Origin: a virus
Direction: 5' to 3' (one strand)
Length of the DNA stretch: 64,000 bases
Virus record (IMG/VR): IMGVR_UViG_3300045988_124546
Both the position numbers and the translations under genes were made by a program. Below the pieces are notes generated by a model. That model was not told where the DNA came from. It searched no databases and saw nothing but the letters and a program-made list of their open reading frames with translations. Positions within the stretch are counted from its first letter, which is position 1. Each line of letters starts with the position of its first letter. This document shows positions 7,401 through 47,430 of this stretch, piece after piece.

Positions 7401-7547
7401 TACTTCTTTGTAAAATACGTGAAGGAGGCTGTTCAAGAGCGTCTTGATCAGATGAGAGATCCGTATATGAGAGGAATAAATATCATGCCTAACATGAATG
7501 ACAAGTTTAGTAAGTTGAACGATTTTTTGCAAAAAATTTATGGCTGA
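4488..7547 (+). CDS. Large virion/cargo-type protein (1019 aa), GTG start overlapping upstream stop
   Basis: Long ORF, translationally coupled on both sides (TAGTG at 4486-4490; ATGGCTGA at 7540-7547). Confidence 0.8.
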   Translation: MASQYSILRQYAPYVSPYNIDLVKDVMMYKQQKVDAAREKIYTQVDYLMGQEIDKPEARAYMEDKMSGVIANINQKFKGVDLSSDGVTRAIQGEISSVLDDTVINAIAGTKEGKRVMKEIESIKQNHPELYSPINEWHALDPYYKWRSDGKAGSRLGGLHYSPYVDYTKEINKLVSDFRKNNEGKKIQTTEYDVKGNPTGGIIEVNVDELTDSQIRNFVSANLSENMRNQMRIEASYMAATNPVFSNPDLVSQYIGSYVERYDRHIGALEAKKKSVGDNKDIIDRIDSQIQEAKNQKAEAKREADMIIASSDPVAAANFVVTNNLFDKMTDAWRYDNTSFERKKDDLYFARLAEDRAQQKFLTDNAKSMVEISLANEQLAQAKIETEYMRTYGSKMGTESSSGGTRGTGGVGVPMAPMDGPTAINSGTGKIGSVNLANIPYEQLTSSSTERRANLLKLYNSLSPTDRSNIVEASYEEEKTDPGLYANMTPEERIYSYLKNNGGQKNGYFGQGNNRLSEAYDALLLSDSKANGAAKAINNITDYQIDNIVTEKNKDIIRKVRNAKFMKGNSFINLTDTDDKAGAFLLATAITTGVSDAVGFREYMMDPSRGIDILSAISPSLGAKASAGKLGKNISDAITSENNGSSTGTLALINGMKKLNGDPDFNISDYMTIDKDGDIDLKDYQEGEPLTITQLRYAEKNSRVSDMIAGQMQDEIKMSVSPDQISDKLSQYHYLDSYKRYNWNADSPEKSLQKAQFRRLSGYMAGKVNNLDPTAINAINMDAEIDNGTVRRFLTAQVGSGKKSYVTERVEITNDELLKAGIDPSVEERNYPVDGYKSSFGTCDFVDTGKKEGYSYDKYLIRNGLPRLASKADVKNDLYDIVKVHGSYLKPEEMNVVKTLVDNFIDMSDNISVQLEGMDDRGSREVAVNFYDKRTKNSKNPALLFSDFVPLDPGNDEYADYWNNIHQKCPQYFFVKYVKEAVQERLDQMRDPYMRGINIMPNMNDKFSKLNDFLQKIYG

Positions 7548-10500
7548 TAATAACATAGATAGATATAATCCTGCTGCTAAAACCACTTACGAAGATGTGG
7601 CAAGGCAAAGGAAATTAGCTGAAGAAGAAAATTACACTCCGGCTACATTACCAGAGACGACAACGCCTCTGGTTCCTAATTATATGCCTGGTGAAGGTGT
7701 GTATGCCCAACCTAAATTTCCAGATTATGCATCAAGGATAGCTGCTGCCGAATACGAAGAGCCGTATATAGCCAAGGAAATAAGCAATAGCTACTCGGAG
7801 GCACTGGCCCGTAACAGCTACAGGGGGGCTACACCTGCACCGCCTCCTCTTAATCCTTATGGACCAAAGGTAAGTATCCGTGAAAGTCATCAGATGGGTA
7901 ATGATGGGGTATGGCGTACAAAATATCCCAACTATATTCCGGGTATAAATAATGAGGATTATTATGCCAGAAGACAGAGCGGATGGAGTAAGTTTTGGAA
8001 TGGTGTAGGCAAATTCGCTTTAAAGTCCGCATTGTACGGTGCTCAAGGAGTTGTGTCATTGCCTGACAAACTTATCAATATGGCATCTGAGGGAAGTTAC
8101 AAAGCTGCGTTAAACACTAACATGGATAAGTTTGTAGGTGATCTTGACCAGCAAATAGACATGCTTCTTCCCCATTATTACAAGAAAGAGGTAGAAGATT
8201 ATAATTTTGGTCAGAAGCTTTTTAAGGATACCGGTAATTTCTTGTGGAATGACGTCCTTGGTAATGGTATGTCTTTTACCGTAGGAGCCATGATATCAGC
8301 GTACATGACCGGAGGACTTGGAGTTGGATCATTGGGTAATATAGGCGCTAAATTAGGTGGAAGAATCGGAGCTAAGTTAGCAGCAAGGCAAGCTGCCAAT
8401 AGGGGCATAGGAAGCCTTAAAAGCGTGTTTAACGACTATGTAAGAAAAGGAGTTGCTACCGGAAGAAATGTAGGGGAGGCGGCTAAGACCATGACGTTGT
8501 TGGCTACCAGTGCCGGATTCGAGTCATCGGTTGAAGCAAATTCTTTTATGAAGCAATCTGAGTCTGATTTCAAGGATTATTATCGTAAGATTTATGGTCG
8601 TGATCCCAATGCAGAGGAAATGGCTGTTTTTCGTAATTTTAATGCTGATGTAGGTAGTGCTATATTTGCCGCCAATATGGGTATAGTAGGATTATCTAAC
8701 TGGCTTCTTTTTGGTAAGTATATAGGGTTAGGAGGCAAGGCTATACCAGGGTTGGAAAAGAAGCTCAACAAGCATTTATTTGGATTAGGGACGGAAGTTG
8801 CGAAGCCGGGAGAGATGGCTATTAAAATAACCAATCCCAATATAGGACAAAAGATAGCAGGCAATGTTTTCAATATCATGAAAAGGCCGGTGTCCGAAGG
8901 CTTATGGGAAGAAGGATCTCAAGGTGCTGTTCAGAATACGGCTGAGGAATATGTTAAGTCAAGATATGATAATGTAGCCATGAACGGAGCCGTTGATGTT
9001 CTTGATGCTATTTCTGAAGGATTTAAAAAGCAATATACGTCTAAAGAAGGATGGACTGAAATAGGAATCGGTGCTATTATCGGTTCTTTGTTTGGTATGA
9101 GGGAAGGCTTCTTTGGGGTTAAAGAGTATAGCAATAGTCAGATCTTGCTGGAAAGGCAAGTGAATGAATACAACAAAGCATCTTCTAATCTTAACACGGC
9201 GGCTTTGAATACGTTGAAAAAATCAATGAGTTTAGGGCCTCAAGTTCGTTCCGATGCCCAGTCTATGACTGGCAAGGAGCTTGATGATGCTATGTTTGAA
9301 AAGATGTCTATTGACAACCAAATGGGAACCTTAGAGGATTCGGCTGAAAATTTTAGGCAGATGATTGATATGATGCCTATTTCGGAAATAGCCGAAGCTA
9401 ATGGAATGTCTTTGGAAGAGGCAAAGAAATACAAGGATTCTATTATTGATAATTATAACAATCGTCTTTCTGATTTCAGATCTGCCCAGAGTTTTGCCGA
9501 AGATCTTATAGGTGATGACTCTAAGATCGAATTTAGAAAATACGTAGCTCGTAATGCCTTCCTTGGCCTTCAATCAGAATCAAGGATGAAAGACATAGCT
9601 TCTGTCATAGAAACGCTTTCGGGGCAGCCTCGCGTGGCGGATGCTCTAAGTACGTTCTCCCGGCTGTCGGACAGGGCAAGGGAGCGGGCGATGGCTATCC
9701 GTGGCATACGGTCAAGAATAGAAGAACTTGAATCCGAAATAGAAGATCTTGCTACCCGCCCTCGCAACGTAGAAGGGAAAGATCCACAAGCTGAATCCAT
9801 ACAACGAAAAACCAAAGAATTGGAAAGCCTTAGAACCAATTACAATAATTCGTTGTCTGAGTTATCAACGTTAATAGGAAAAGAGTTTTCGATAGAAGAG
9901 CTGGTAAGTAAAACCGAATCTGTTTTATCATCTCCTCTTTCTCCCATAAGTTCACAAGATGTGATAGAAGCCTATGATACGCTTGTGGCTTTTGATGATT
10001 ATTTTAATGTAAAATCAAGACAGGAAAAGAAGTTTACAGCCAAAGACAAAGCCATGAGATCCTTGGTAAATGAATACCGAAGAAGTTTGATGGACTATAG
10101 GAATATGAATAACTTCTTGTCTAAGATGCTTGATAAAAGATTCTTAGCTGAGGAAAACAGGGGGTTTTCAAAAGCGCTGTCTTCTCTATGGTCTACTCCT
10201 TATAAAGGGGATGACAAGGTTCCTGATTTTGCAGAGTCTAATAAAGTTGGTGAATATGACACTGATGAGGTAGTAGATCAAGCTGTGTCAGAAGGTAAGA
10301 TTTCGGAAGACGAAGCTTGGACTATCAAGGCTTTTATGCATGCTCTTGATAAAGTAAGGGAAGATAGGATGAAGGAAGCAGAAGATGATATAAAAGAGTC
10401 ACCGCTTACGGAGTCTGTATCGGATGAAGATTATGAGGCTGCTATGGATAATCCTATTATGGTTCCGGCCGTAAGGCAGTCTATAATTGATAAACTATAT

Positions 10501-31703: not shown

Positions 31704-32356
31704 GTTGTCAATTATTGCTATCTTGCAAACAAAAAATCATGAGACGAAGATTTCAAATAGGGATGGGGGTAAATCCCTCGCTTATAATCAATAAAGGCAT
31801 ATACATCCAACATGTAGATGGAGGATTATATACAAAAGAAAATTGGTCTAATAAATTATATTCCAATGATCTATGCAATGGAATAGCTCTTGTAGATAAA
31901 GTGTGTTTTGTTATAGCCACTGAATATATTGGCACATTTAGTTGGGGTAAGGATGGAAGAGTAGACAATGTATTTGCACAAAATAGTTCTTATATGGAGA
32001 CCGTTAAAAAGGATTATTGGGGGCGTGAAAATCAGAATGCGTATCTTGAATATGATACCAGTAATGAAAATTACGCTTTTAATAAAGCTAATAGCTATTT
32101 ATTTAAAAATGGTCAAAATGGATATGTAAGTGGCGCCGGAGAGTTTTTTTTGATATCATTGTATGCGAATGAAATAAACGAATGTCTTTTAATGGTAGGA
32201 GGTACGATAATGAGTAATAAAATGTGGACATCCACTCAATCTACACAATTTACCTATTCGTGGTATTATGATATAAACATCCAAGGAGATCATTTGGATA
32301 CAAGTACAAGGAGTAATCCACGTTATGTCCGCCCCCTTACCGAATTAATTTTATGA
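31679..32356 (+). CDS. Protein with DUF1566-like (Lcl C-terminal-like) C-terminal motif; probable true start ATG 31739 (MRRRFQIG..., 206 aa)
   Basis: Track ORF overlaps the terminator hairpin. C-terminus MWTSTQ...SWYYDI...RYVRPL resembles YWSST...AW...YVRCV of DUF1566. Confidence 0.55.
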   Translation: MIGNRFLLCCQLLLSCKQKIMRRRFQIGMGVNPSLIINKGIYIQHVDGGLYTKENWSNKLYSNDLCNGIALVDKVCFVIATEYIGTFSWGKDGRVDNVFAQNSSYMETVKKDYWGRENQNAYLEYDTSNENYAFNKANSYLFKNGQNGYVSGAGEFFLISLYANEINECLLMVGGTIMSNKMWTSTQSTQFTYSWYYDINIQGDHLDTSTRSNPRYVRPLTELIL

Positions 32357-32360
32357 AATT

Positions 32361-33098
32361 ATGAGAAGAAGATTTGAAAATAATGCTAAACTATATGAGT
32401 ATAAGATAGTTAGCGATTGTATAGGGGGGGAGGTAATCGTAGAAAGAAAGAAAGTAGGCACCATTCCACAGGGCGGGCAATTTATCTTTCTGTCTAAAAA
32501 AGAACGGCTGGATTCCATAAGTGTCCAGGGCGGTGTTCCAATGGAAGATAGGCAAGAGATCGATAGTCAGGTTGATACGACAGAGGAATTGCTTGAACAG
32601 GATTCGGTGGTTCTTGCTATTGCTTTAACAACCTCTCCTTATTATGGATTTAGAGTAAGTGTGATAGCACCTGATGAGTTTACGCTAAGAACAACCAATA
32701 GGATTAATAGAACCTTTTTAATAACAAGCTTTACTCCACCTGCTGCTATATACGGTGTAAACTTTGGTGATCCTATTGTCCTTAATTATGATAGTTACCA
32801 ATATAAGATGTCAGATCCTGTAATTGATGGACCTCATGATAGAATAGTTAGGGCAGATCCTAATCTTACTTGGGTTGTAAGATGTACAGACGCCGACTTT
32901 AAACCTTTGCCATATCCAGAATCATGGTCTGGCCAAGGTTTAAATTCTGTGTTCTTACCAGATATGAAACGTCTTGCTCCTGGTGATCATCATGTATCAT
33001 ATACAGCTTATATTAATTTGGACTTGATAAATGATGGCGGAAGTAAAGTTCATACTGAATATCTGATATTAAAAAAAACACTTAATTTTACGATATGA
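32361..33098 (+). CDS. Hypothetical protein (245 aa) with MRRRF N-terminus
   Basis: ORF. Starts ATGAGAAGAAGATTT like genes at 14184 and 31739. Confidence 0.6.
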   Translation: MRRRFENNAKLYEYKIVSDCIGGEVIVERKKVGTIPQGGQFIFLSKKERLDSISVQGGVPMEDRQEIDSQVDTTEELLEQDSVVLAIALTTSPYYGFRVSVIAPDEFTLRTTNRINRTFLITSFTPPAAIYGVNFGDPIVLNYDSYQYKMSDPVIDGPHDRIVRADPNLTWVVRCTDADFKPLPYPESWSGQGLNSVFLPDMKRLAPGDHHVSYTAYINLDLINDGGSKVHTEYLILKKTLNFTI

Positions 33099-33100
33099 CA

Positions 33101-33141
33101 ACAATCCCCAACCGTACGCCTATTGTATGGTTGGGGATTGT
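33101..33141. terminator. Strong hairpin (13-bp perfect stem acaatccccaacc / ggttggggattgt, 15-nt loop) at the convergence point of the plus- and minus-strand gene blocks
   Basis: Read directly. Lies between convergent stops at 33098 (+) and 33188 (-). Confidence 0.6.
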
Positions 33142-33187
33142 TGTAGTTACCATCTTTTCTTGTATAAGCAGAACATGAAATAAGTTT

Positions 33188-33676
33188 CTAAGCATTAACT
33201 TCATGACCTCCCCTATCTGTGAAAACTAAACCAATACCTTCTATGATATGTCCTACTACAGGAGCTTTGTCAAATTCCTCCTTCGTAGCCCAAGTAGCAT
33301 TATCAGGCATAAGATCCTTGAATGCGTCCGAAACATCACCTTGACACCAGCAGTTATTTGATGTAACAATGCCTTTCCCTTCGATATTGATATACATTTT
33401 TCTTCCACCACATCCAAGGCTGTTCCATCCGCTCGGTACGTTTTCCACCATAGGCTTAAGCACCCAGCTTACACCGTCTATCCTAACCCATCCAGGATCG
33501 TCTTTGTGCTTGTCGTACAAGTTTTGCCAAAAAGAGCATTCGTAGCACCATCCCCTGTCTTCCATGACAGTTCTTATCTCACTCCTTTCAAATCCATCTG
33601 CATCCATCGTGTGCGGAGAATGAGGCTGGTGAGGGGTGCCACATTTTGGACATATGAGTTTTAAATTCTTTTCCAT
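33188..33676 (-). CDS. Hypothetical Cys-rich protein with N-terminal zinc-ribbon-like CPKCG motif (162 aa)
   Basis: ORF. Last gene of the minus-strand block. Confidence 0.55.
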   Translation of the reverse strand: MEKNLKLICPKCGTPHQPHSPHTMDADGFERSEIRTVMEDRGWCYECSFWQNLYDKHKDDPGWVRIDGVSWVLKPMVENVPSGWNSLGCGGRKMYINIEGKGIVTSNNCWCQGDVSDAFKDLMPDNATWATKEEFDKAPVVGHIIEGIGLVFTDRGGHEVNA

Positions 33677-33677
33677 A

Positions 33678-33914
33678 TTATTTAACTTTTACGATCTTAA
33701 TAGAATCTCCGATATTGTATTCCCCTTGGTATCCAACGAATTTTATAAGCCTATTATTATAAAATATTGAAATTCTTTCGTCTTCACCATAATACATTAT
33801 ACATCCATCTTCTAAAGGAAGTAGATCATATATAACCCATCCGTTATTAACCTGACTATCATCATGCGAACATGATGATAACACAAGTGCCATCAATAAA
33901 ATAAAATACCTCAT
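33678..33914 (-). CDS. Small putative lipoprotein (78 aa; signal peptide with lipobox LSSC)
   Basis: N-terminus MRYFILLMALVLSSCSHDD. Confidence 0.5.
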   Translation of the reverse strand: MRYFILLMALVLSSCSHDDSQVNNGWVIYDLLPLEDGCIMYYGEDERISIFYNNRLIKFVGYQGEYNIGDSIKIVKVK

Positions 33915-33921
33915 ATTATTT

Positions 33922-34113
33922 TCAACATAAAAATTTATAACCTGTTTTTACAGCTTCCGCTTCTTCTCTCGTATCAAACATTAAGGTAGTGACAGCTCCT
34001 ATTCCTTCACAAACGTAAGACACTTTCACCCACCACCTAAAAACCCCAGAGCCATAATCGTCATAGTACGGCTCAGAAAGAACTTCTTCTACATACCCAT
34101 CCAAATAATTCAC
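33922..34113 (-). CDS. Small hypothetical protein (63 aa)
   Basis: ORF in operon context. Confidence 0.4.
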   Translation of the reverse strand: MNYLDGYVEEVLSEPYYDDYGSGVFRWWVKVSYVCEGIGAVTTLMFDTREEAEAVKTGYKFLC

Positions 34114-37403: not shown

Positions 37404-37766
37404 CTATGCGCCTATGGCTGCCTCTAAATTTCCTATAATATCAGTTTCTATCTCATCGATTTTATCATCAATGGTTGAAACCGCATTCTCTAAATCCCCT
37501 ACAATACTTTCCATATCATCAACAACCGCCTCCATATTAGCTACAGCCTCATCTGATTGATAATATCTTTCTGTATCTTGTAACGGCTCCGGCGTATTGT
37601 CTCTTGCTTCTGTCTCCTCGTCTAAAATCATATCAACATCATCCTTGGCTGAATCCAGATTATGCCTGACCTCTGACAGCTTTGATTTGATAAACTCAAG
37701 ATCTGTTTTATGCTTTTCCAAATTGGAAATAATATCCTCTATTTTCTTACGTCTTTTGCTGTTCAT
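37404..37766 (-). CDS. Acidic coiled-coil protein (120 aa)
   Basis: ORF, highly acidic (D/E-rich). Confidence 0.5.
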   Translation of the reverse strand: MNSKRRKKIEDIISNLEKHKTDLEFIKSKLSEVRHNLDSAKDDVDMILDEETEARDNTPEPLQDTERYYQSDEAVANMEAVVDDMESIVGDLENAVSTIDDKIDEIETDIIGNLEAAIGA

Positions 37767-39184
37767 GCTTTTATCCTATTATAATATTCGATAATCTTTT
37801 CTTTCCTATCTCCCGGTTTTACTGCCATATTCTCAGCCAAGAACCTAAAATACGACACCGGTATGTCTTTGAATCTAATTCCTTCATATTTTCCAAACCA
37901 CATTATTATGCTGTCAAGATCGTCCTCTCTCCTACCATCTCCATTTACGGATTTAAGCGAGGCTGCCCGGCGAAGGATTTCGTCTTTGGTAATAATATCA
38001 CCCATCCTTATATTGGACAGAAGTTGATCGCCGGCAAACATACACCATCCCTTAGAAGGAAATTGTTCGATCGTTAAATCTTCTATCCGGCCGAAACGCC
38101 TCATGTTGTCGCAGCAATCAACTATCAGCGCCTCTTTCTTGTCAGGATGGATGCGGACGGCTCGACCTACAATTTGGTAAAATACTGAATATGAGAACGT
38201 TGGTCGTCCAAACATCACACAATCAAGTTCAGGAAAATCAAATCCGGTAGCAAGCGTTGAATAATTAAACACGACCTTTAACTTACCTTCTTTGAAATCG
38301 GATATGATTTGCTCTCTTTTCTTTTTGGTTGTTAGCGATGTTACGACACCTGTTATGGCTCCCATCCTGGCATTCATGAACTCGGATATTCTATTACATG
38401 ATTCGATAGAATCCATGCAAACCAAAATGGCCTTACGCTCGTTCATAAGCTGAAGAAGACGCTTATAGATAGAGTTGTTTAAGCCGTTTCGTACAATGCT
38501 TTCTTTGATAGATTCGTTGGTGTATTCGGCTCCGGTACTGTTTAACATCAGAGCCGATTCATCAAACGACCATCGTTCGTACTTAAGTGGACACCAAAAA
38601 CCTTGAGAAGTTAGCTCTTGTATTTGTATTACATGAACTATTTTCTTGAAGAAGTTATGTTCGTCTTTCGTCAGCATATTAAGTTTGCTGTAGTTTCCTT
38701 CCAGCATGGAGCTGTAGGTCCGGAGGCGGCAGGGCGTGGCGGTGAAGCCCAGCACCTTCGCCTCGGGAAACTCGCTCATAAACTCCATAAATTCAGAACC
38801 TTCCTCAGGGGAATACCCCGAGTGGCATTCGTCCACCAATAAGGTGTCTATCCCTATATCTTTCAACCTTGCTACGTCTTTCTTTATGCTTTTAAGTGTA
38901 GCATAAGTCATAGCCGATAATTCCTTTACGCCACATGAGGCAGAGTATATGGTAGGTTTAGCTCCAAATGATATGGCTTTCGCATAATTCTGTTCCAGAA
39001 TCTCTTTTGATGGCTGCAATACTAACGTCGGTCTATTTATCTCATGCGCTATCTTGGATATCAGAAGGCTCTTACCTGCTCCGCATGGGGCCACTATTAT
39101 GCCAGGCTTCTTAGATTTTCCTGTAAGAAACTTAAGCCCGGCATCTACGGCCTCTTTTTGGTAAGGTCTAAGTTCAAAGCCCAT
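37763..39184 (-). CDS. Superfamily 2 DEAD/DEAH-box DNA helicase (type III restriction res-subunit-like)
   Basis: Walker A VAPCGAGKSLLISK; motif II LLVDECHSG; motif III GFTATP; motif VI QIVGRAVR. Confidence 0.85.
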   Translation of the reverse strand: MGFELRPYQKEAVDAGLKFLTGKSKKPGIIVAPCGAGKSLLISKIAHEINRPTLVLQPSKEILEQNYAKAISFGAKPTIYSASCGVKELSAMTYATLKSIKKDVARLKDIGIDTLLVDECHSGYSPEEGSEFMEFMSEFPEAKVLGFTATPCRLRTYSSMLEGNYSKLNMLTKDEHNFFKKIVHVIQIQELTSQGFWCPLKYERWSFDESALMLNSTGAEYTNESIKESIVRNGLNNSIYKRLLQLMNERKAILVCMDSIESCNRISEFMNARMGAITGVVTSLTTKKKREQIISDFKEGKLKVVFNYSTLATGFDFPELDCVMFGRPTFSYSVFYQIVGRAVRIHPDKKEALIVDCCDNMRRFGRIEDLTIEQFPSKGWCMFAGDQLLSNIRMGDIITKDEILRRAASLKSVNGDGRREDDLDSIIMWFGKYEGIRFKDIPVSYFRFLAENMAVKPGDRKEKIIEYYNRIKA

Positions 39185-39917: not shown

Positions 39918-40056
39918 ATATCCTCCAGCTTCTCCTGAAGCTCAAACGCTTTCTTGAAATTCCCGCATCTTACAGCAACATCTCTCATGTATTCTACGTT
40001 TATAACTTCCGGATCTTGCCGGTATTTTGTTCTTAACTTTTGAACATCCTCGTATT

Positions 40057-41076
40057 TCATCGTTTTATCTTTTTAGACGGATCCCAATCCGAAGAGAAAG
40101 GGCATTCGTTTTTGTTATGTAATCCAAAGTCACAATAATAACACAGTGCTGACGGGCAGGGCAGCCTGTTTTGCGGAACAGGCTGACTTAGGGTGGCGCG
40201 CCGCTTGCTATACCTGGCTCCTTCTGCTCCCTGGATGTACGCTTGAAATGATTTTACACTATTATCTTCAAAATCATACATTTTAGATAAAGTGTCATTT
40301 AGCATCTCTATAGATTTTGTTTTACGTTCCTCATCCACTTTAACCTTTTGGTATTGTCTGGTCCTGGTAAAGAAATAGATGTTCATATCTGGCAGAACTC
40401 CACCATATTTTCTATAGATGTAAAACGAATATATAGGATGCTGTAAATTCGTTTCCAACTTCTTAGAATCAAAAACCTTATTACCTGATTTCCAATCTAT
40501 GACATAATGGTGAACTACGTTCTTGCTCTTTATAGCCAGATGAAGATCTACCGATCCTACTATGTACACATGTGTATGAACGTCACCATTTATATCAACA
40601 GGCTTAGGAAGACGGTACGGCAGCACAAAATCTTCTTCGACTCCAACTATGGCGCCGTGTCTGATAAGTTTCTCGCAGGGATTAAGATCACTATCAGCTA
40701 TCATAAACCTATTCCCGTCTTTTTTGAACAGATCCACAATCCAAGCAAGAAGTTCCCCAGATTGCTTCATGGCTATCATCATATTTTCCGGTGATTGCCA
40801 AGGTATGTCCTCCTGGTAAGCATAGTAACTTATTGCTTCTCCAAGGTCTTTACCAGAAGGCTGTCTTCCGTTCTTAAAGAAGTATTCCAGTGTCTTATGG
40901 ATAACCGTACCATAGGATGTAGCTTCTTGTTTTTCCGTAGACCTTTTGCCCTCCACGTAAGTCTTATACCATTTCATTGGACAGGTAAGAAACGTATCTA
41001 TCTGGGAATAAGATATGGCAAGACGTTTTACACCATTAAACTCCTTATATAGCAAATGCGTTTCCGGGACCATCAT
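40057..41076 (-). CDS. Cas4-like PD-(D/E)XK exonuclease with 4Fe-4S-type Cys cluster
   Basis: N-terminal TCPMKWY motif, central VIDWKSGNK (D-x-K), C-terminal CPSALCYYCDFGLHNKNECPF cysteine cluster, as in Cas4/RecB-family nucleases. Confidence 0.6.
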   Translation of the reverse strand: MMVPETHLLYKEFNGVKRLAISYSQIDTFLTCPMKWYKTYVEGKRSTEKQEATSYGTVIHKTLEYFFKNGRQPSGKDLGEAISYYAYQEDIPWQSPENMMIAMKQSGELLAWIVDLFKKDGNRFMIADSDLNPCEKLIRHGAIVGVEEDFVLPYRLPKPVDINGDVHTHVYIVGSVDLHLAIKSKNVVHHYVIDWKSGNKVFDSKKLETNLQHPIYSFYIYRKYGGVLPDMNIYFFTRTRQYQKVKVDEERKTKSIEMLNDTLSKMYDFEDNSVKSFQAYIQGAEGARYSKRRATLSQPVPQNRLPCPSALCYYCDFGLHNKNECPFSSDWDPSKKIKR

Positions 41077-41432
41077 AAGTCATTGTCTTTAAATCCTTCC
41101 GGGTAATATACGACATACTTCTTACCGTCTTCTGGTGTCATGGCAAACTGCATGTAGTTATTACGATTACGATGCTTGCCATCTAATCCTCGCTTCCAAT
41201 ACAGAATCCCGTCTATCTCCACATAAGACCGTCCGCGTTCGGCTCTAACTACGTCCGTGTGTAGCAGATACCCGTCGGAAGACACGATCCATACTTTATC
41301 ACCTTTGTTTAAATAAGATATTCTTTTTCTTACAACAACCTTTTTCTTATTATCCAATACAAATTCCTCATCAGTCATACTCTTCATCCTCCTCTTCTTC
41401 TGTTTCAAAATCAATTCCATAACACTGATCAT
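41073..41432 (-). CDS. Hypothetical protein (119 aa)
   Basis: ORF. Confidence 0.5.
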   Translation of the reverse strand: MISVMELILKQKKRRMKSMTDEEFVLDNKKKVVVRKRISYLNKGDKVWIVSSDGYLLHTDVVRAERGRSYVEIDGILYWKRGLDGKHRNRNNYMQFAMTPEDGKKYVVYYPEGFKDNDL

Positions 41433-41595
41433 AATGCTTGGTCAGTTCTTCTGGTTCTAAATCTTGTCCAAAATCCATGTTAAAAATATCGTAATTAGTA
41501 AAGCACTTAAAAGCACTGTTTCCGCCGGCAGGAAATCTATGAATGCTGCTTTTATTTCTTCAATTAGGCCCAAGTGTAACCTTGGGCCATTGTAT

Positions 41596-43272
41596 TTATT
41601 TTTTGTCATCTCCCTTTAACTTCTTTAAAGTATCTGCAATCGGAAGCTGATCAATGACTCCCAATGCCGGAGCGACGGTCTTGACAACATTGTTAAGGAA
41701 ATTACCGGTACTGTTCTGACCGCCGTCAAATACCGTGATATTTCCGAGGTTAATGTGCTCAAATGCCTTAACCTGTTCTCCGGCAATTTCTTTCCACTGA
41801 TTAACCATCTTGTACTGGATGGCGATCTGAGGATTGGATTCTGCTGCTTCCACCATAGCCTTAAATCCGTCGGCTTCTGCCATCAACGATTTTTTCTTAC
41901 CTTCGGCTTCTGCCTCCAGCTTCATCTGAATAGCTTTTGCCTCCGCCTCAGCTTTTGCCAAATGTGCTGCTGCCTCTGCCTCAGCCCGGCGTTTGATCTT
42001 CTCTGCCTCAGCATCAGCTTGCAAGATAGCCTCTTCCTTCTGGGTTTCAGCCGGCACAATCTTTTCAGCCTTAAGCGCAGCCTGAACTTTCTTAGCCTTA
42101 GCTTCTTCTGCCGTTTTTACAGCCGCTTCCGATTTAACTTTTTCTTCTCCGGCCTTCTTCTCTGATTGAGCTTTGATGATCTGTAATTCTGATACCGATA
42201 CAGCAACCTCCTTCTGGGCATTGTTGTATCCTATAGACGCATTTTTCTCAGCCTCAGCCTTCTTAATCTGAGCTTCAGAGTCTTGTATTGCTATAGCTGC
42301 TTCCTTGTCAGCTTCAGCCTTATTTTTTCCGACTTCTTCCATCCTTTCAGCCTCGGCTTTATTTACTTCAAGTTCTGCCTTAGATCTTACAATCGCCGAT
42401 TCCTTGTCGGTTAAAGTTTTTGCGATAACCGCAGCCCTGTCTCTATCTGCTTGAGCTACGCCGATCTGTTTCTCTTTATCGGTTAAAGCCAAGGCTATTT
42501 CTTTTTCTTTCTTCGTTTCAGCTACTATCGTTTCCTTTTCTTTTTCAGTACAAGCAATTTGAATCTCTTGTTCTTTTTTGGTATTAGCCACAGCCGTTTC
42601 TTTCTCCTTCTGCTGTACAGCAATCTTAATAGCACCCAGCTTCTCCTGTTCTTCAATATTAGCCTGTGCCTCGTTCAGAGCCCTACTTTCAGCTTCCTTA
42701 CCAAGGTTCATAATATAACCGGCTTCGTCTCTGATGTCACTGATGTTGATGTTCAGGAGGTAAAGACCTAACTTGTTAAGTTCGTTATCAATGTTCTTTC
42801 TTGCCTTATCCAAAAACTCATCCCTGTCAGAATTAAGTTTTTCGATTGTCATTTCAGCAATAATCAAACGCATCTGACCGTAAACGATGTCCGTAATAAG
42901 ATTTTCAGTAGATTCGGTATCCATCCCCAAAAGTCTTTCTGCCGCATTTTGCATGATTTCTGGATTTGTACTGATAGCTACTGTAATAGTCGTAGGTACA
43001 TCTACTCTAATATTCTGAGATGACAAAGCACCGGTAAGCTTGCAATCTATTTGCATAGGCTCCATTGACAAAACATCATAGCTTTGAATAATAGGCAAGA
43101 CAAATGCCGCTCCACCATGATATAATTTCGCCGATTTCTTTTCCCCACCTGTCTTACCATAAACGACCAAGACCTGATTAGGCTTACATCTACGATACCT
43201 TGATAAGACTCCGATGATTGTCAAAATAATCACTACAGCTAAGATAGCTGACACGTACATGATTGTTGTCAT
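41596..43272 (-). CDS. Flotillin-like SPFH/band-7 domain protein (N-terminal TM, SPFH domain, long Glu/Ala-rich flotillin coiled-coil repeats)
   Basis: N-terminal hydrophobic helix; SPFH core (VLVVYGK...GGAAFVLPIIQSYDVL...); about 250 aa of AEAEAK/EKE repeats, as in bacterial FloT/YuaG. Confidence 0.8.
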   Translation of the reverse strand: MTTIMYVSAILAVVIILTIIGVLSRYRRCKPNQVLVVYGKTGGEKKSAKLYHGGAAFVLPIIQSYDVLSMEPMQIDCKLTGALSSQNIRVDVPTTITVAISTNPEIMQNAAERLLGMDTESTENLITDIVYGQMRLIIAEMTIEKLNSDRDEFLDKARKNIDNELNKLGLYLLNINISDIRDEAGYIMNLGKEAESRALNEAQANIEEQEKLGAIKIAVQQKEKETAVANTKKEQEIQIACTEKEKETIVAETKKEKEIALALTDKEKQIGVAQADRDRAAVIAKTLTDKESAIVRSKAELEVNKAEAERMEEVGKNKAEADKEAAIAIQDSEAQIKKAEAEKNASIGYNNAQKEVAVSVSELQIIKAQSEKKAGEEKVKSEAAVKTAEEAKAKKVQAALKAEKIVPAETQKEEAILQADAEAEKIKRRAEAEAAAHLAKAEAEAKAIQMKLEAEAEGKKKSLMAEADGFKAMVEAAESNPQIAIQYKMVNQWKEIAGEQVKAFEHINLGNITVFDGGQNSTGNFLNNVVKTVAPALGVIDQLPIADTLKKLKGDDKK

Positions 43273-43304
43273 AACTTTTAAAATTTAATTGTTGATAAAA
43301 AAAA

Positions 43305-43799
43305 TTAGATACTTAATTCTCCTTCTTCATATTTTATATTCGCCTTGTCGCCGTTTTTGTAGGTTTTCCCAGACAAGCATCTTACTCTCATTTGCTCTTG
43401 TCTTCCATTTTTCGAAATATTTACCATATAATGATTCTTCCCTGATCTAAACACTATCTCCACTTCTCTGCCATTTAAATCTTCCGGACATTCGTACACC
43501 ATTTCTTGCTTTAACTTAAGAAGTAACTTATATACGTAAAACAAAACGATAAAGAAAAACGACCCTATTACGACCCCTATTAAATGGGAACCCGAAAAGT
43601 ATGTGGTCCAGCTATATCCAAGAATAAAATGTGTTATGCCTTTGAATGATATGATGTCCGACAAAGACATGCTTAAATCAGAAGCGTTATCAATGTCAAT
43701 ATCCGTATCCAGATCAGATCCTAATATCGACAATAAAAACTGTATAACAAAAGCAAATGACGCTATTAAAGCCATGCATAAAATTATATCATTTCCCAT
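43305..43799 (-). CDS. NfeD-like membrane protein (N-terminal TM helices plus C-terminal OB-fold-like beta domain), partner of the downstream flotillin
   Basis: Hydrophobic N-terminal half. C-terminal NGREVEIVFRSGKNHYMVNISKNGRQEQMRVRCLSG resembles the NfeD short-form OB domain. Gene order NfeD then SPFH is the conserved operon arrangement. Confidence 0.5.
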   Translation of the reverse strand: MGNDIILCMALIASFAFVIQFLLSILGSDLDTDIDIDNASDLSMSLSDIISFKGITHFILGYSWTTYFSGSHLIGVVIGSFFFIVLFYVYKLLLKLKQEMVYECPEDLNGREVEIVFRSGKNHYMVNISKNGRQEQMRVRCLSGKTYKNGDKANIKYEEGELSI

Positions 43800-44040
43800 A
43801 TCCTTCTGTTATTATTTTGTAAACAAGATCAGTCATATCTTTGATGGATTCTGTATCATAATCAATAATAACGATATTGAATTTTTGTTCCACCATCGCA
43901 TCAAGCTCAATTCGATCAATAGAATCTAATCCAAGTTCTTTAAACGACACATCTTCTTCATGAACTATATCCATTTCCGAATTAAGAAACTGAGTAATAA
44001 TTATATCCTCTATTATCTTTCTAATTCTTACTTTTTCCAT
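43789..44040 (-). CDS. Acyl carrier protein-like carrier protein (83 aa) with phosphopantetheine-attachment Ser motif
   Basis: FKELGLDSIDRIELDAMVEQKFNIVI matches the ACP helix II motif (LGxDSLDxVEL...EEEF). Confidence 0.6.
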   Translation of the reverse strand: MEKVRIRKIIEDIIITQFLNSEMDIVHEEDVSFKELGLDSIDRIELDAMVEQKFNIVIIDYDTESIKDMTDLVYKIITEGYGK

Positions 44041-44741
44041 TGCTTTCTAATTTTGTTAAATAAATATGTTTTTATGTTTTTCAATCGTTCTTTGTCTGTT
44101 TCCGCACTTCCGGTAAACAAATAATCCGGATTGCCTTTAGCCGGCGGCGTAGGCAATTTAGATACGGCAAACAACCAATCCATTTCCTTATTCTTCTTAG
44201 ACTCCAAATAAGGCTCGGTAGCGATCTTAAATTTTTCAGCTATTAAGTCAAAGAGCTTTGAATTTTTAAGGTTCATATGGACTGAAAAAGCCTGAGAAGG
44301 CGGTTTCCATATGAAGTTACATAAGCTCATTGTATAATCTCCTGACTCTGCTATATAAGATTCCGTTACCTGAAGTATGACCTCTTTCTTGAATGAGGTG
44401 TTACCCATAAACCAACACAATCTGGATTCCGCTTCTTTTCTACTGACACCTATGTCTTTTGAATATGATTCGTACATTCCTATCATAATCTTCAACGTTT
44501 CCAGAACCTCGTCTGTCATTTCCGGTGTCTCTATATAATTTACAAAAGACGTTCCTTTGTTGGTTAATCTCATCACGCCTGATTTTAATTTCTCAACCAG
44601 GCCAAGCTCTATATACTTCCCAGCATCTTCTTCCGGCATGGCTTCGATCATAACCGAATCCTTCTGTCTTATGGCGAGAAGATTGGCAAGATCATTAGGA
44701 GTCATGTCTGATGCTGCAAGTTGTCTGAAATTGATGTACAT
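44028..44741 (-). CDS. Hypothetical protein (237 aa), first gene of the ACP/NfeD/flotillin operon
   Basis: ORF overlapping the downstream ACP-like gene by 13 nt. Confidence 0.6.
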   Translation of the reverse strand: MYINFRQLAASDMTPNDLANLLAIRQKDSVMIEAMPEEDAGKYIELGLVEKLKSGVMRLTNKGTSFVNYIETPEMTDEVLETLKIMIGMYESYSKDIGVSRKEAESRLCWFMGNTSFKKEVILQVTESYIAESGDYTMSLCNFIWKPPSQAFSVHMNLKNSKLFDLIAEKFKIATEPYLESKKNKEMDWLFAVSKLPTPPAKGNPDYLFTGSAETDKERLKNIKTYLFNKIRKQWKK

Positions 44742-44743
44742 TT

Positions 44744-44869
44744 TTAATCAGCTTTAATAAAAATAACATTCTTGTTATCTTGTCTATCGCATGTATCACC
44801 TTCCACACATTTTAATCTTACAAGTCCGGCATCAAACACTTCTCCTACTTTAAATTCCTTCTTTTCCAT
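44744..44869 (-). CDS. Unlisted small ORF (41 aa, MEKKEFKVGEVFDAGLVRLKCVEGDTCDRQDNKNVIFIKAD) with AAGGAGGG Shine-Dalgarno
   Basis: Found by eye in the 143-nt gap, below the 60-aa track threshold. SD 7 nt upstream of ATG. Confidence 0.25.
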   Translation of the reverse strand: MEKKEFKVGEVFDAGLVRLKCVEGDTCDRQDNKNVIFIKAD

Positions 44870-44884
44870 ATTCCCTCCTTGTTT

Positions 44885-45487
44885 TTAACTGTTGTACCCT
44901 TCTTTAATAATCGAATTTCTACCGGTAGATACCGACTGTCGAAGATCGTCATGTACAGAATCTACCGTAGAATACTTGTTTCTGGTTGTAAAAATCACTT
45001 CCAGCATCTCCTTGTAGTCACCTAAAGCTACTTCGTATCTCGGATCTACTTTGGCTTTTCTTTCAGCCTCAGCATTACTTTTAGCCAGCTCCCGGTCGAG
45101 GAGGTCTTCTTTGATTCGGTCAGCAATCATATCAAGTTCTTTTTTAATAACTTCTCCTGCTGCCCGAAGTTGACCTTCTACGTCACCAAGCTGGTCTTGG
45201 ACGGTACCTATTTCTTTCTTTAGGCGATCGTATTCGTTAATCATACCCATATCACCTGCATATCCAGAAAAGTCCTTGATTATTCTGGTTCCTTCTTTAA
45301 GAAGTTCAATAACTCGTCTTTTACGTTCTCTGCTTATTAAAGATGGAAGACGATAATTCATATCTGCCACCGCCTTATCATGTATGGAGTTGATTAAAAA
45401 CATCTCTCTTTCATCTCCTGCAAACTCAGTAAGAACCAAAAGGAACTTACTTATCAGGTATTCGTTTTCTTCTACTGTTAGTCTCAT
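44885..45487 (-). CDS. Hypothetical coiled-coil protein (200 aa)
   Basis: ORF directly downstream of the DnaB-like helicase; possible helicase-associated factor (speculative). Confidence 0.55.
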   Translation of the reverse strand: MRLTVEENEYLISKFLLVLTEFAGDEREMFLINSIHDKAVADMNYRLPSLISRERKRRVIELLKEGTRIIKDFSGYAGDMGMINEYDRLKKEIGTVQDQLGDVEGQLRAAGEVIKKELDMIADRIKEDLLDRELAKSNAEAERKAKVDPRYEVALGDYKEMLEVIFTTRNKYSTVDSVHDDLRQSVSTGRNSIIKEGYNS

Positions 45488-45502
45488 GGTTCTTATTTTT
45501 TT

Positions 45503-46636
45503 TTAATACAATGACTGTTCTTCTTTTGTCTCTTGTTCTTGTTCCTGATTGTCCGTAACGTCTTCCACAGTATAGAGCTTGGGCGGCGTCGGCGGCTGGT
45601 TGGGGTTCACGAACTTCGTCCCGCCCTCCCCGTACATCCATCCATGCCCCGGCAGGATCTCTGGGTGGATTGTATTAGTAAGCTCTTCCATACTAACTTG
45701 CCTTACCTTCAGTATATGATGAAATACCAGTCCGGCTGTCCTGAATGATGTTTTGTTTTCAGTTTTAAACCTATCAAGAGTCTGATACCAATCTTTCCCA
45801 AATATCATATACTTATCCAGCCCGTACCTACGAGGATTGTGCAAGCCTATCATTAACGTACATAACTGACCCAGCGTATCAGATTGGTAAAAATCAGAAA
45901 GACGCGGAGGCTGTTCTTGTGGGCTTTTTATCCTTCCTTCTATCTCTCTGTTGAATTGGGATATGATGAGGAAAAATATGTTTTTATATACTAATTTAGC
46001 CTCGTTCATAACCGCCACCAAATCATCTATAGCCGACTTAGGATCTAACCCCATTCTTTTTATCAAAGCAATATGATCGACTTTAAATATTATAAGACGT
46101 TTGTCTTTGTGTTTGGTAGCTATATGATACACAGCCGCCTCAAACTCTTTTACCGTACACGGAGCATCGATGTATATTATATTATTCCTGATTTCACCTT
46201 GAAGGATTTCAAACATCCTCATCTCTTCCACTGTATTAGAATCTTGCCTTCTTAATATTTCAGGAGCCCGCTTTTTCATATCCTGGCTCATTCTACGAAG
46301 AAGAAGATCTTGAGGATTCATTTCGAACTCGCAATTAACAAGAAAATAATCTTCTGCTTGCGGGTTGATCATCGGATTCATCACATTTTCCAATATCTTT
46401 TGGGCCACATACGATTTACCTACAGATGGCCGGGCTCCTATGGCAATAGCATGCTGAGGGAAAATACCTCCAAGCAAAGCCTCATCAATATAATCGTATC
46501 CGGTTTTAGCGGGGATAAGCTCTCCCCGCCTGTATTTCAAGATATTCTCATACGCCTCTTCCATAACCTGTTTAGAGGTCTTGAATATCCTTCTTATATC
46601 TATCCTATTTGCTATCTCCTCTTGCATTTTTGTCAC
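45503..46636 (-). CDS. DnaB-family replicative DNA helicase (RecA-fold C-terminal domain)
   Basis: YIDEALLGGIFPQHAIAIGARPSVGKSYVAQKI matches the DnaB pattern LD..tGGl..g.L.iiaaRPsmGKT. Confidence 0.7.
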   Translation of the reverse strand: MTKMQEEIANRIDIRRIFKTSKQVMEEAYENILKYRRGELIPAKTGYDYIDEALLGGIFPQHAIAIGARPSVGKSYVAQKILENVMNPMINPQAEDYFLVNCEFEMNPQDLLLRRMSQDMKKRAPEILRRQDSNTVEEMRMFEILQGEIRNNIIYIDAPCTVKEFEAAVYHIATKHKDKRLIIFKVDHIALIKRMGLDPKSAIDDLVAVMNEAKLVYKNIFFLIISQFNREIEGRIKSPQEQPPRLSDFYQSDTLGQLCTLMIGLHNPRRYGLDKYMIFGKDWYQTLDRFKTENKTSFRTAGLVFHHILKVRQVSMEELTNTIHPEILPGHGWMYGEGGTKFVNPNQPPTPPKLYTVEDVTDNQEQEQETKEEQSLY

Positions 46637-46883
46637 CTTTCGTATCCGATTTGGATCCCCTATTAGCTTTTACTGATTTATACCTAAGACCGTTCTTGGT
46701 ATGAGAACAATCCTTACCTTTCCTCCAACCCTTGCCCTTCTTCTTGTCCGTTTCGTAATTTTTACGACCAAGCTCTCGGCGTTTGGCTTTCTGTTCCGGT
46801 CTGGCATTTATCTCCTTGTCCTTTTTAGCCTTTTTCTTCCTGGCTTCGGGATGAGTCCTGTAGTACTCTGTTGATCTGCCCAT
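46605..46883 (-). CDS. Small Lys/Arg-rich basic protein (92 aa), probably nucleic-acid binding
   Basis: Composition (KKKAKKDKE..., KRRELGRKNYETDKKKGKGWRKGK). Confidence 0.45.
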   Translation of the reverse strand: MGRSTEYYRTHPEARKKKAKKDKEINARPEQKAKRRELGRKNYETDKKKGKGWRKGKDCSHTKNGLRYKSVKANRGSKSDTKGDKNARGDSK

Positions 46884-46935
46884 GTGCTTATATTTTTTTT
46901 GATTAATAATAGCACAAAGATAGGCAATTCGCGCC

Positions 46936-47430
46936 CTATTTCAACCTGCCGTAGCTCATATCAGGATCACACCAGACATACCCGTCTTTCTCATCATGAA
47001 GATACTCAGGACATCCTCTGCATGCGCTACTGCCTGACACTATTTGATTGTTTTTGTTAGGGCACTTATCTCCAGGCTTATGCCATTCTATTCTCGAACC
47101 TGATCGCTCTTTGTTTACATGACAGAATTGAAAGATTTTCCCCATCGTCTTCTCGCCAAACATACCTATATGTGTGTATTCTTCCGGTATAGAGAGAAAT
47201 TCAGATAAATCTTTATACATCCTTTCCCGTTCCTCCGGCGTAGACCATAGTCTGTCAAGTTCGGCATGGACCCTTATCTTAAGAGACCTCAGTGATGGCC
47301 CTGCAAGCCGGCCTTTAGCTTTTCCCTTATTCGGCCCTGATTCATGAACACCGACATAAGCATTGCATGGTTTACACATCATAACCATCCCTAAGTCTTT
47401 TCTGCTATATATTTTATCGGCATTGACCAA
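46936..47430 (-). CDS. Cys-rich hypothetical protein (164 aa; CKPC...CRGC motifs)
   Basis: ORF with two CxxC pairs. Confidence 0.55.
   Translation of the reverse strand: MVNADKIYSRKDLGMVMMCKPCNAYVGVHESGPNKGKAKGRLAGPSLRSLKIRVHAELDRLWSTPEERERMYKDLSEFLSIPEEYTHIGMFGEKTMGKIFQFCHVNKERSGSRIEWHKPGDKCPNKNNQIVSGSSACRGCPEYLHDEKDGYVWCDPDMSYGRLK

Follow-up and report, generated by a model that had tools for sequence, protein, structure and literature searches.

Why should a phage carry a flotillin gene, and which of the genes packed around it belong with it? The window considered here (the whole stretch of DNA analysed, 64,000 nucleotides of IMG/VR virus record IMGVR_UViG_3300045988_124546) presents a flotillin gene at the downstream end of a run of four genes on the minus strand. 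The initial annotation took the four to be a translationally coupled operon, joining the flotillin and an NfeD-like partner to an acyl carrier protein (ACP)-like protein and to a 237-aa protein, here called p237. We argue instead that 41596-43799, the flotillin and its partner, is probably a two-gene, host-derived accessory cassette of epsilon crAss-like phages, with a proposed role as a membrane scaffold. The features pertinent to the argument are as follows:

41457..41609, minus strand: ORF of 50 aa whose C-terminal helix is hydrophobic; it shares 14 nt with the stop end of the flotillin gene
41596..43272, minus strand: flotillin, 558 aa, with Band_7 and Flot matches; core of the proposed cassette
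41834..43556, no strand assigned: span lost in deletion alleles (41857-43459 in L182/L183; 41834-43556 in L184)
43273..43304, minus strand: A/T-rich spacer of 32 nt at the NfeD-like/flotillin junction
43305..43799, minus strand: short NfeD-like partner, 164 aa; second gene of the proposed captured cassette
43789..44040, minus strand: ACP-like protein, 83 aa, pI 4.35, with an LGLDSID motif (PP-binding, phrog_5934); backbone gene adjoining the cassette
44028..44741, minus strand: p237, 237 aa, with an N-terminal MarR-like winged helix-turn-helix (wHTH) and a helical C-terminal domain lacking an assignment
44744..44869, minus strand: 41-codon ORF with aaggaggg upstream, filling a 143-nt "gap" upstream of p237

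The phage itself is readily placed. Across 7 kb, the window is 97.3% identical to crAssE-Sib (OR575929.1), a published phage (PMC11054128) whose deposited record is a complete genome of 151 kb. The earlier supposition that this is a crAss-like phage is borne out: it belongs to the epsilon group, is nearly identical to crAssE-Sib, and has Bacteroidales as its predicted hosts (PMC11054128, PMC7886860). Its 2213-aa structural protein is matched by the Cellulophaga phages phi17:2 and phi4:1, the former placed in the Epsilon group by Yutin et al. (PMC7886860). NCBI taxonomy enters the phage under unclassified Caudoviricetes, and crAssE-Sib has no cultured host (PMC11054128). The supplementary ORF table of PMC11054128 is the one place where the flotillin and the ACP are labelled as such, and our literature searches found no discussion beyond those labels of a flotillin or an ACP in crAss-like phages.

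The flotillin has the parts initially ascribed to it: a transmembrane (TM) anchor, an SPFH domain, and a Glu/Ala-rich region. The anchor is a single N-terminal hydrophobic segment (residues 1-28). Band_7 (PF01145) matches residues 30-211 (E 7.4e-26; 91.7 bits, cutoff 23.6) and spans positions 4-176 of the 176 in the profile, and the C-terminal Flot domain (PF15975) matches residues 442-551 (38.9 bits, cutoff 27). The coiled-coil region, at about residues 196-470, is rich in E, A, and K (18% E, 22% A, and 16% K in a 275-residue stretch, or 62% E/A/K/Q), and its length varies within the phage population. Since the protein scores 150.5 bits against the FloT equivalog of NCBIfam (NF058507), far under the cutoff of 700, it is a flotillin but not an orthologue of FloT; its orthologues are the flotillins of Bacteroidales.

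The 164-aa partner had been described as an NfeD-like protein with TM and OB-fold parts. The architecture stands, as three predicted TM helices precede a beta domain, but a match to Pfam NfeD is lacking. The predicted layout is TM1, an acidic DxD-rich loop, TM2 and TM3, and a C-terminal OB-fold; the structure model places helices at residues 2-25, 52-69, and 72-101, and hydrophobic segments lie at 1-30 and 67-96. The OB-fold, which follows the N-terminal TM helices, has the five strands of a partner-binding domain and, going by the model, may serve as one. Neither the protein nor its closest relatives match NfeD (PF01957), YqiJ_N/YqiJ_OB, or any other Pfam family (E <= 0.1-1), and in the wider family just three members out of 82 hit Pfam NfeD (best E 6e-05). 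The alignment with E. coli YqiJ is in register and marginal (hhalign E 0.047, BLAST E 0.21), and a phmmer match to SpoIIAA in the PDB was spurious. As the protein has no Pfam match, the NfeD assignment rests on fold, transitive matches, and context. The context is regular: the gene adjoins an SPFH gene in the same orientation at 82 of 82 phage loci and at 80 of 81 bacterial loci, the remaining one being cut by a contig end. The comparison with the bacterial yuaF-floT operon holds, and it extends to yqiJ-yqiK, where again an NfeD-type gene lies directly upstream of the flotillin. What emerges is a divergent NfeD-like family of about 400 representatives, missed by Pfam today, that partners flotillin across Bacteroidales.

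The 83-aa protein is ACP-like, as initially proposed, with a PP-binding match above cutoff (26.7 bits, cutoff 20.8) and a match to phrog_5934 (acyl carrier protein); all NCBIfam ACP models score under their cutoffs. The serine of its LGLDS(I/V/L)D motif aligns to Ser36 of E. coli AcpP. Its neighbor p237 is a winged-helix protein of the DNA-binding type and a conserved backbone gene of the replication module; a role as PPTase or acyl enzyme is ruled out by the wHTH fold and by the lack of an ACPS match. Scans of the 164-aa and 237-aa proteins against Pfam, NCBIfam, PHROG, and PADLOC gave nothing usable, and PADLOC, run against all four proteins, returned no match apart from a faint one to p237.

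The four ORFs are indeed co-directional on the minus strand, and neighbors overlap at two junctions, by 11 nt at 43789-43799 and by 13 nt at 44028-44040. As the mark of a coupled operon, however, these overlaps are indistinct, being routine in the surrounding array: the block of minus-strand genes has 59 junctions, of which 25 overlap, and in 10 of these the overlap is 8-20 nt. The NfeD-like/flotillin junction is the only one inside the set without an overlap. (Its 32-nt spacer resembles the spacer of roughly 40 nt in the bacterial operon.) Because the 41-codon ORF occupies the apparent gap upstream of p237, the array is continuous there, and the deposited record carries an annotated 65-aa CDS at the equivalent position. 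A terminator scan found no terminator-like site on the minus strand from 41.4 to 46.9 kb, and searches for the Bacteroides TTTG...TAnnTTTG motif and for sigma-70 promoters gave counts at background and none in the module. The four-gene set has no boundaries of its own. The pair lies between the gene for DnaB and those for a PD-(D/E)XK nuclease and helicase, within a co-directional array of about 60 genes, and in G+C content and GC skew it does not differ from its flanks.

Bacterial chromosomes tell where the flotillin and its partner came from. The flotillin is 62-66% identical over its full length to the chromosomal flotillins of Bacteroides, Parabacteroides, Phocaeicola, and Prevotella, and the partner is 30-42% identical over its full length to the bacterial copies. 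An NfeD-like homologue lies 40-150 nt upstream of the bacterial flotillin at 80 of 81 loci; homologues of ACP, p237, or other phage genes are absent from all 81, and at one of them (L085) the neighbors are housekeeping genes. In the gene trees of both proteins, the two phage lineages group together as a single clade, and its sister is the sampled Bacteroidales. As judged from these comparisons of sequence, the pair is established as host-derived, by a single co-capture from a Bacteroidota chromosome. The Bacteroidales operon has the same genes as the phage, in the same order and on the same strand, with a short spacer and the same domain architecture. It differs in that the phage copies form a clade of their own outside the sampled radiation and lie within a replication-gene array; a small extra TM ORF downstream and the variation in coiled-coil length are also features of the phage. 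The bacterial orthologues are about 84-87% identical among themselves. The phage copies are farther from all sampled Bacteroidales than these are from each other, a pattern in which old capture and fast divergence look alike.

Could the bacterial ancestry of the pair, clear as it is, mean simply that a bacterial fragment was misassembled into the contig, or that a passenger gene is decaying there without function? Either notion is already refuted and retains next to no probability. We find the phage-flanked locus 82 times in viral or metagenomic sequence and again in the complete 151-kb deposited genome, identity to bacterial copies is at most 66-70%, G+C and GC skew match those of the flanks, and the ORFs are intact with dN/dS of 0.027-0.064. 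The genes are those of a phage, as the initial annotation held, and not of a chimera: phage flanks appear in more than 80 independent viral contigs, and identity to any bacterial copy is only 64-70% for the flotillin and 31-42% for the NfeD-like protein.

Related phages show which genes travel together. The order of all four is the same in two phage lineages, that of the window and L083, but L168/L169 have p237 and the ACP without the pair, and L170-L173 have p237 alone, lacking both. Common to the related phages are DnaB, p200, p237, (in some) the ACP, p119, and the PD-(D/E)XK nuclease; in place of the pair, relatives carry a DNA methylase with two radical-SAM genes, or other ORFs. The pair thus occupies a variable cargo slot, with p237/ACP on one side and p119/nuclease on the other. 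Moreover, at least two independent, clean deletion alleles, both rare, occur in collinear phage contigs. They lose the OB domain of the NfeD-like protein and the SPFH and coiled-coil regions of the flotillin and keep p237, the ACP, and both flanks. Since such alleles exist, the pair must be dispensable for propagation. Where present, it is under strong purifying selection (dN/dS about 0.03-0.06), matching that on the replicative helicase: across the phage population the flotillin gives 0.027, the NfeD-like protein 0.064, DnaB 0.035, and the nuclease 0.044, and nearly all of the 80 loci have an intact flotillin.

These co-occurrence data largely refute the reading with which the locus was first approached, that translational coupling joins p237, ACP, NfeD-like protein, and flotillin into a single functional module and an acyl or lipid carrier is thereby tied to microdomain formation. 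One can see its appeal: the genes are adjacent on one strand with overlaps of 13 and 11 nt, their order is kept in two phage lineages, and the carrier serine of the ACP is retained in all 80 close loci and in L083. Yet overlaps are commonplace in the array, bacteria have the pair only (ACP and p237 are missing at 81 of 81 loci), relatives lack the pair but have p237, some of them together with the ACP, and the deletions take the pair and spare its two neighbors. The ACP also evolves at four to ten times the rate of the pair (dN/dS 0.27 against 0.03-0.06), its carrier serine is Asp in L168, and p237, with its wHTH, does not have an enzyme-like fold. As for the suggested lipid or acyl-transfer component, the 151-kb genome has no annotated PPTase, acyltransferase, or lipid enzyme to go with the ACP, though many ORFs in it are annotated as hypothetical, and the host might supply a PPTase. 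A functional unit of four is therefore very unlikely, and the acyl carrier protein should not be tied to the flotillin. The ACP-like protein and p237 are backbone neighbors whose function is separate from the cassette and probably related to DNA or replication. A possible third, phage-specific component of the cassette is the 50-aa ORF: L083 has a counterpart by position, whose N-terminal motif is similar and which has a TM helix at its C-terminus, and none is found in the flotillin-less L168 or at the 81 bacterial loci. Scans against Pfam and PHROG found no family for it.

What might the cassette do? According to the model we favor, the common ancestor of some epsilon crAss-like phages co-captured the pair once from a Bacteroidota chromosome, the pair was inserted into the variable cargo slot of the replication-gene array, and the small tail-anchored ORF of 50 aa was perhaps added on the phage side. 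The cassette would be co-transcribed with the replication genes, and both proteins would insert into the host inner membrane. There, by analogy with cellular SPFH/NfeD pairs, the flotillin may form an oligomeric scaffold or cage to which the OB domain of the NfeD-like protein binds, and this phage scaffold would supplement the host flotillin (64-70% identical) or mix with it. The likely benefit, admittedly a conjecture, is that the membrane of the infected cell is stabilized or reorganized during a long productive or persistent infection. Such a benefit would be conditional and non-essential.

An alternative is a hostile role, in which the pair co-assembles with or displaces host flotillin and so disables a host membrane function or excludes superinfecting phages; the function at stake might be a defence at the membrane, a response to stress or an abortive one, or a regulated protease. 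Between phage and host flotillins, the SPFH domain and the C-terminal oligomerization region are conserved most and the coiled coil carries the bulk of the divergence, a pattern that makes mixed phage/host oligomers plausible. The strong purifying selection implies that the pair is functional, and recurrent deletions fit a host-dependent trade-off of cost and benefit. But the pair matches no PADLOC model, it has no linked gene for defence or anti-defence, and nothing at the level of sequence separates interference from reinforcement. We regard interference as unlikely. A membrane platform that anchors or organizes the phage replisome or early proteins is more doubtful still, and we would give it little credence. 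It draws on the site of the pair between DnaB and the nuclease and helicase, in a continuous array with no internal terminator, but position is weak evidence in an array of 60 genes, relatives whose replication genes are the same fill the slot with an unrelated methylase and radical-SAM genes, and deletion alleles occur. A role in a lysis cassette, also suggested by position, was rejected: in the deposited record, endolysin and membrane-protein genes occupy about 40-41.6 kb, some 80 kb from the module, which falls at about 120-123 kb.

Long persistent or carrier-type infections are typical of crAss-like phages. It is conceivable, if a long shot, that a virus-built SPFH cage in the inner membrane of Bacteroides mixes with or replaces the host flotillin, rewiring membrane organization during infection. 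Such a cage would, for example, sustain infections of this kind or blunt membrane-triggered abortive responses. If so, the rare deletion alleles would represent a host-dependent escape from the cost of the cage, and a virus-encoded flotillin would for the first time have a demonstrated functional role.

Cellular SPFH/NfeD assemblies include QmcA-YbbJ and HflK/C of E. coli and FloT-YuaF of B. subtilis, the first of which is the SPFH-NfeD complex of PDB 8z5g. Set against the QmcA-YbbJ complex and the HflK/C cages, the phage pair differs in that QmcA and HflK/C are SPFH proteins of the stomatin/prohibitin type, whereas the pair comprises a flotillin, whose assembly is putative. The operons yuaF(nfeD2)-floT(yuaG) of B. 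subtilis and yqiJ-yqiK of E. coli are distant relations, given the 150 bits against a cutoff of 700 for the FloT equivalog and a partner without a match to NfeD, YqiJ_N, or YqiJ_OB; unlike them, the genes of the window are phage-borne. SPFH proteins take part in membrane-stress networks (PMC8581546, PMC8844932).

Other phages carry SPFH or Band 7 genes: the T4-like 44RR, Aeh1, and RB43, Vi01-like phages, Schitoviridae GIB1, Burkholderia phage CSP3, and Vibrio phage KIT04, with its "flotillin family protein" (PMC1524935, PMC10892097, PMC13239085, PMC10269572). For several families, the purpose of these genes is said by the authors to be "unclear" (PMC13239085). Like the genes of the window, they are accessory genes of obscure role, in virulent or temperate phages. 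They are mostly short lipoprotein or prohibitin types (phrog_200), without a Flot domain or a recognized NfeD partner, whereas here a complete host operon was captured, partner as well as flotillin. The pair is thus a solid, if modestly novel, addition to a known but unexplained class. An 82-aa membrane protein upstream of the KIT04 flotillin was considered as an NfeD-like homologue and set aside, the similarity not being significant. Of 50,697 phage records, only 11 match the flotillin. A scan of viral contigs with the flotillin yielded matches that are all of the same species (at least 95% identity) and is for that reason uninformative on distant phages. Among phage SPFH genes, a complete host operon in an abundant phage of the human gut makes an unusually clean case, for with natural knock-out alleles in metagenomes and a defined two-gene unit, intact and deleted genotypes are ready to be compared.

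The initial annotation had read four overlapping minus-strand ORFs in this part of the window, and all four were recovered with the same coordinates and the same junction overlaps (11 nt and 13 nt):

41596-43272, minus strand: flotillin, 558 aa, with Band_7 and Flot domains
43305-43799, minus strand: NfeD-like protein, 164 aa, with no convincing match in Pfam, PHROG or NCBIfam models
43789-44040, minus strand: ACP-like protein, 83 aa, PP-binding, phrog_5934
44028-44741, minus strand: p237, a winged-helix protein of 237 aa, also with no convincing match in Pfam, PHROG or NCBIfam models

The 558-aa protein has a single N-terminal hydrophobic segment (residues 1-28), a Band_7/SPFH domain (30-211, E 7.4e-26), a stretch of 275 residues of which 62% are E, A, K or Q, and a Flot C-terminal domain (442-551). 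Both Pfam domains score above their gathering scores, bearing out its reading as a flotillin with an anchor, an SPFH domain and a long repeat region. The dominant flotillin form has 566 aa (75 of 80 loci), and that of the window is a minority in-frame variant, 8 aa shorter. Among metagenome clusters, lengths range from 459 to 594 aa, with in-frame indels confined to the E/A/K-rich coiled coil (about aa 300-440); some short forms may be repeats collapsed in assembly. The ACP-like assignment also stands: the 83-aa protein scores 26.7 bits against a Pfam PP-binding cutoff of 20.8, matches the phage ACP family phrog_5934, and carries, in LGLDSID, a serine aligned to Ser36 of E. coli AcpP.

Over the 7 kb surrounding the module (window 40000-47000), identity to phage csAssE-Sib (OR575929.1; 151 kb, human gut) is 97.3%; this phage is called crAssE-Sib in a paper on epsilon crAss-like phages (PMC11054128) and is listed by NCBI as unclassified Caudoviricetes. 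Genomes in the Epsilon group measure about 150 kb, and Cellulophaga phage phi17:2 is among its members (PMC7886860); a structural protein of 2213 aa in the window matches phi17:2 and phi4:1. The GenBank record and the supplementary ORF table already carry the labels "flotillin family protein" and "acyl carrier protein", with "transmembrane" or "hypothetical" for the 164-aa gene, and the main text mentions none of these genes (PMC11054128). No paper linking flotillin or ACP to crAss-like phages turned up in the literature searched. At about 32000-34000 of the window, both GC and AT skew switch sign where the plus-strand structural genes give way to a minus-strand block of about 60 genes.

The identification of the 164-aa protein as NfeD-like held in part. 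Pfam gave zero matches for the window protein, and its matches to E. coli YqiJ are weak (BLAST E 0.21, hhalign E 0.047), both in register. An exhaustive profile search gathered a family of 405 representatives at E <= 0.001, mostly of 160-180 aa, in which Pfam NfeD was matched by 3 of 82 full-length members (best E 6e-05). Against the PDB, the sole soluble-domain match of the family profile was to the OB domain in B. subtilis YuaF, weak (E 0.15) and covering the whole domain. YuaF is the NfeD partner of FloT in B. subtilis. Taking this profile evidence together with architecture and gene context, we consider the protein best assigned as a short NfeD-like partner; the family is a divergent NfeD-like one that current Pfam models miss. 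The partner of about 165 aa in Bacteroidales chromosomal loci (L087-L166, about 3400-3960) belongs to the same family of some 400 representatives, which the Pfam NfeD and YqiJ models fail to detect. It diverges much faster than flotillin (39-98% versus 71-100% identity among sampled bacteria).

Scanning reference bacterial genomes gave 80 chromosomal flotillin loci, in Bacteroides, Parabacteroides, Phocaeicola, Prevotella, Leyella and Xylanibacter, and a metagenomic bacterial contig, L085, has housekeeping neighbours beside its flotillin locus. The phage protein is 62-66% identical over its full length to the flotillins of the 80 loci. In 80 of 81 bacterial loci (the exception is truncated at a contig end), the 164-aa protein has a homologue (30-42% identity; E 1e-39 in L085) encoded 40-150 nt upstream of flotillin on the same strand; homologues of ACP, p237 or other phage neighbours occur in 0 of 81. 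The pair is present in all 82 phage loci examined, 80 from the same species and two from the diverged lineage L083/L084 (flotillin at 81% and NfeD-like protein at 61% identity). The order that had been likened to a bacterial NfeD-SPFH operon is indeed shared. Both gene trees place the two phage lineages in a single clade, sister to the sampled Bacteroidales; bacterial orthologues are about 84-87% identical among themselves, the phage flotillin only 64-70% to any of them. It follows that the pair was captured once, as a unit, either long ago or with fast divergence afterwards. The same trees and divergence exclude a bacterial fragment joined in a chimeric assembly, a caveat raised at the outset. 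The L085 flotillin (6001-7980, P0160) reaches 659 aa through a tandem duplication of about 100 residues from the SPFH domain and the beginning of the coiled coil, with STDPEVMQNAAERMLG...NINISDIRDAANYIVNLGKEAESKAQNEAQANIEEQEKLGAI present twice; the duplication is either real or an assembly artefact.

The initial annotation had also taken the overlaps for the mark of a four-gene operon. They are no such mark. Overlaps occur at 25 of 59 junctions in the minus-strand block, 10 of them of 8-20 nt, and two further small ORFs flank the four genes:

41457-41609, minus strand: 50-aa ORF with a C-terminal TM helix, overlapping the flotillin stop by 14 nt
44744-44869, minus strand: 41-codon ORF, MEKKEFKVGEVFDAGLVRLKCVEGDTCDRQDNKNVIFIKAD, with aaggaggg upstream, filling the apparent gap between p200 and p237

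At the position of the latter, the deposited record shows a CDS of 65 aa, and there is therefore an indel relative to crAssE-Sib here. No minus-strand terminator-like site was found at 41.4-46.9 kb, nor any Bacteroides-type promoter motif near the module. The sole non-overlapping junction is the 32-nt spacer between the NfeD-like gene and flotillin, which mirrors the bacterial operon. The 50-aa ORF has a similar 52-aa counterpart after flotillin in L083 (8011-8169), is absent from flotillin-less relatives and bacteria, and may be an extra component of the cassette that is specific to the phages.

ACP and p237 are phage backbone, outside the cassette. The p237 family extends to more distant phages at 35-60% identity, and the related loci have these gene orders:

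L168/L169 (about 150 kb): DnaB, p200, p121, p236, ACP (PP-binding), DNA methylase, p119 homologue, 53-aa ORF, two radical-SAM genes, PD-(D/E)XK nuclease, with neither an NfeD-like gene nor flotillin
L170/L171: p235, then unrelated 105- and 176-aa ORFs
L172-L174: p237 homologues present, ACP absent

With such differing gene content after p237/ACP, this position is a variable cargo slot within a conserved array of replication genes. In L168/L169 the slot (5675-8946) is occupied by a DNA (cytosine-5) methylase together with two radical-SAM genes lying side by side. ACP is 36% identical between the two flotillin-carrying lineages, versus 76% for p237, and in L168 an Asp replaces the phosphopantetheine-attachment Ser (LGFDDLD), which suggests that there it may act as an ACP fold without the prosthetic group. 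The annotation of the whole 151-kb genome includes no PPTase, acyltransferase or lipid enzyme. The proposed lipid or acyl component is thus not upheld: ACP is missing from all 81 bacterial loci, evolves fast, has lost its serine in L168 and lacks an annotated acyl enzyme. Mobile elements also occur in the relatives' replication arrays: in L169 (592-1812) the region upstream of DnaB has gained an IS605 OrfB/TnpB gene, and orthologues of the SNF2/DEAD helicase carry intein or homing-endonuclease insertions (Hint, LAGLIDADG; L170 8014-9837, L173 6142-8571, L184 6882-8480), from which the window's helicase (37763-39184, 473 aa) is free.

Median pairwise dN/dS against the window, over about 80 loci, is 0.027 for flotillin, 0.035 for DnaB, 0.044 for the PD-(D/E)XK nuclease, 0.064 for both the NfeD-like protein and p237, and 0.27 for ACP. 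There are at least two independent deletion alleles, lacking the NfeD OB domain and most of flotillin: window 41857-43459 is cleanly deleted in L182/L183 (4001-4591; identical sequences, counted as one allele) and 41834-43556 in L184 (4001-4480). In both, a fused in-frame ORF runs from the NfeD-like TM region into the final ~80 flotillin residues, and p237, ACP and the collinear flanks are kept. Other junction variants occur among metagenome proteins (P0027, P0009, P0013), two of which, P0009 and P0013, read on into an alternative-frame ORF (41625-41786). Intact clusters hold about 2,400 member sequences, versus 1 for the deleted form. Low dN/dS, clean deletions and far larger intact clusters together mark the pair as an accessory cassette that is maintained but not essential.

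By analogy with QmcA-YbbJ (PDB 8z5g), HflK/C and FloT-YuaF, both proteins would insert into the host inner membrane, where flotillin would form an oligomeric scaffold with the OB domain of its partner bound. Mixed assemblies with host flotillin are plausible, because the SPFH and C-terminal regions are those that resemble the host protein most. Networks of membrane stress and repair involve SPFH proteins (PMC8581546), and how phage infection turns out is influenced by membrane-remodelling proteins (PMC8844932). Our preferred reading is that the cassette would reinforce or reorganise the membrane of the infected cell, to conditional benefit. The main rival is interference with a host function, and no sequence-level feature separates the two. 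Defence-system models gave no match, and the lysis genes lie about 80 kb from the module in the deposited record.

Listings of phage SPFH/Band 7 genes go back to 2006, for the T4-like phages 44RR, Aeh1 and RB43 (PMC1524935), and such genes are also reported in Vi01-like phages (PMC10892097), in Burkholderia phage CSP3 (PMC10269572) and in a Schitoviridae phage, where the role "remains unclear" (PMC13239085). True flotillins are rare among phages (matches in 11 of 50,697 records). What is new here is the recognition of an NfeD-type partner of a phage flotillin, the co-capture of a complete Bacteroidales operon into a phage cargo slot, the selection and deletion data for the pair, and its uncoupling from ACP and p237. 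Vibrio phage KIT04 (T5-like; L086 3680-5350) has an annotated "flotillin family protein" (Band_7 4.6e-24, about 30% identical). Immediately before it, and abutting it, lies the gene of an 82-aa protein that has three TM segments and an acidic DLDD loop. That protein has no OB domain and no significant homology to the NfeD-like family, but the KIT04 gene order parallels that of the NfeD-like/flotillin pair.
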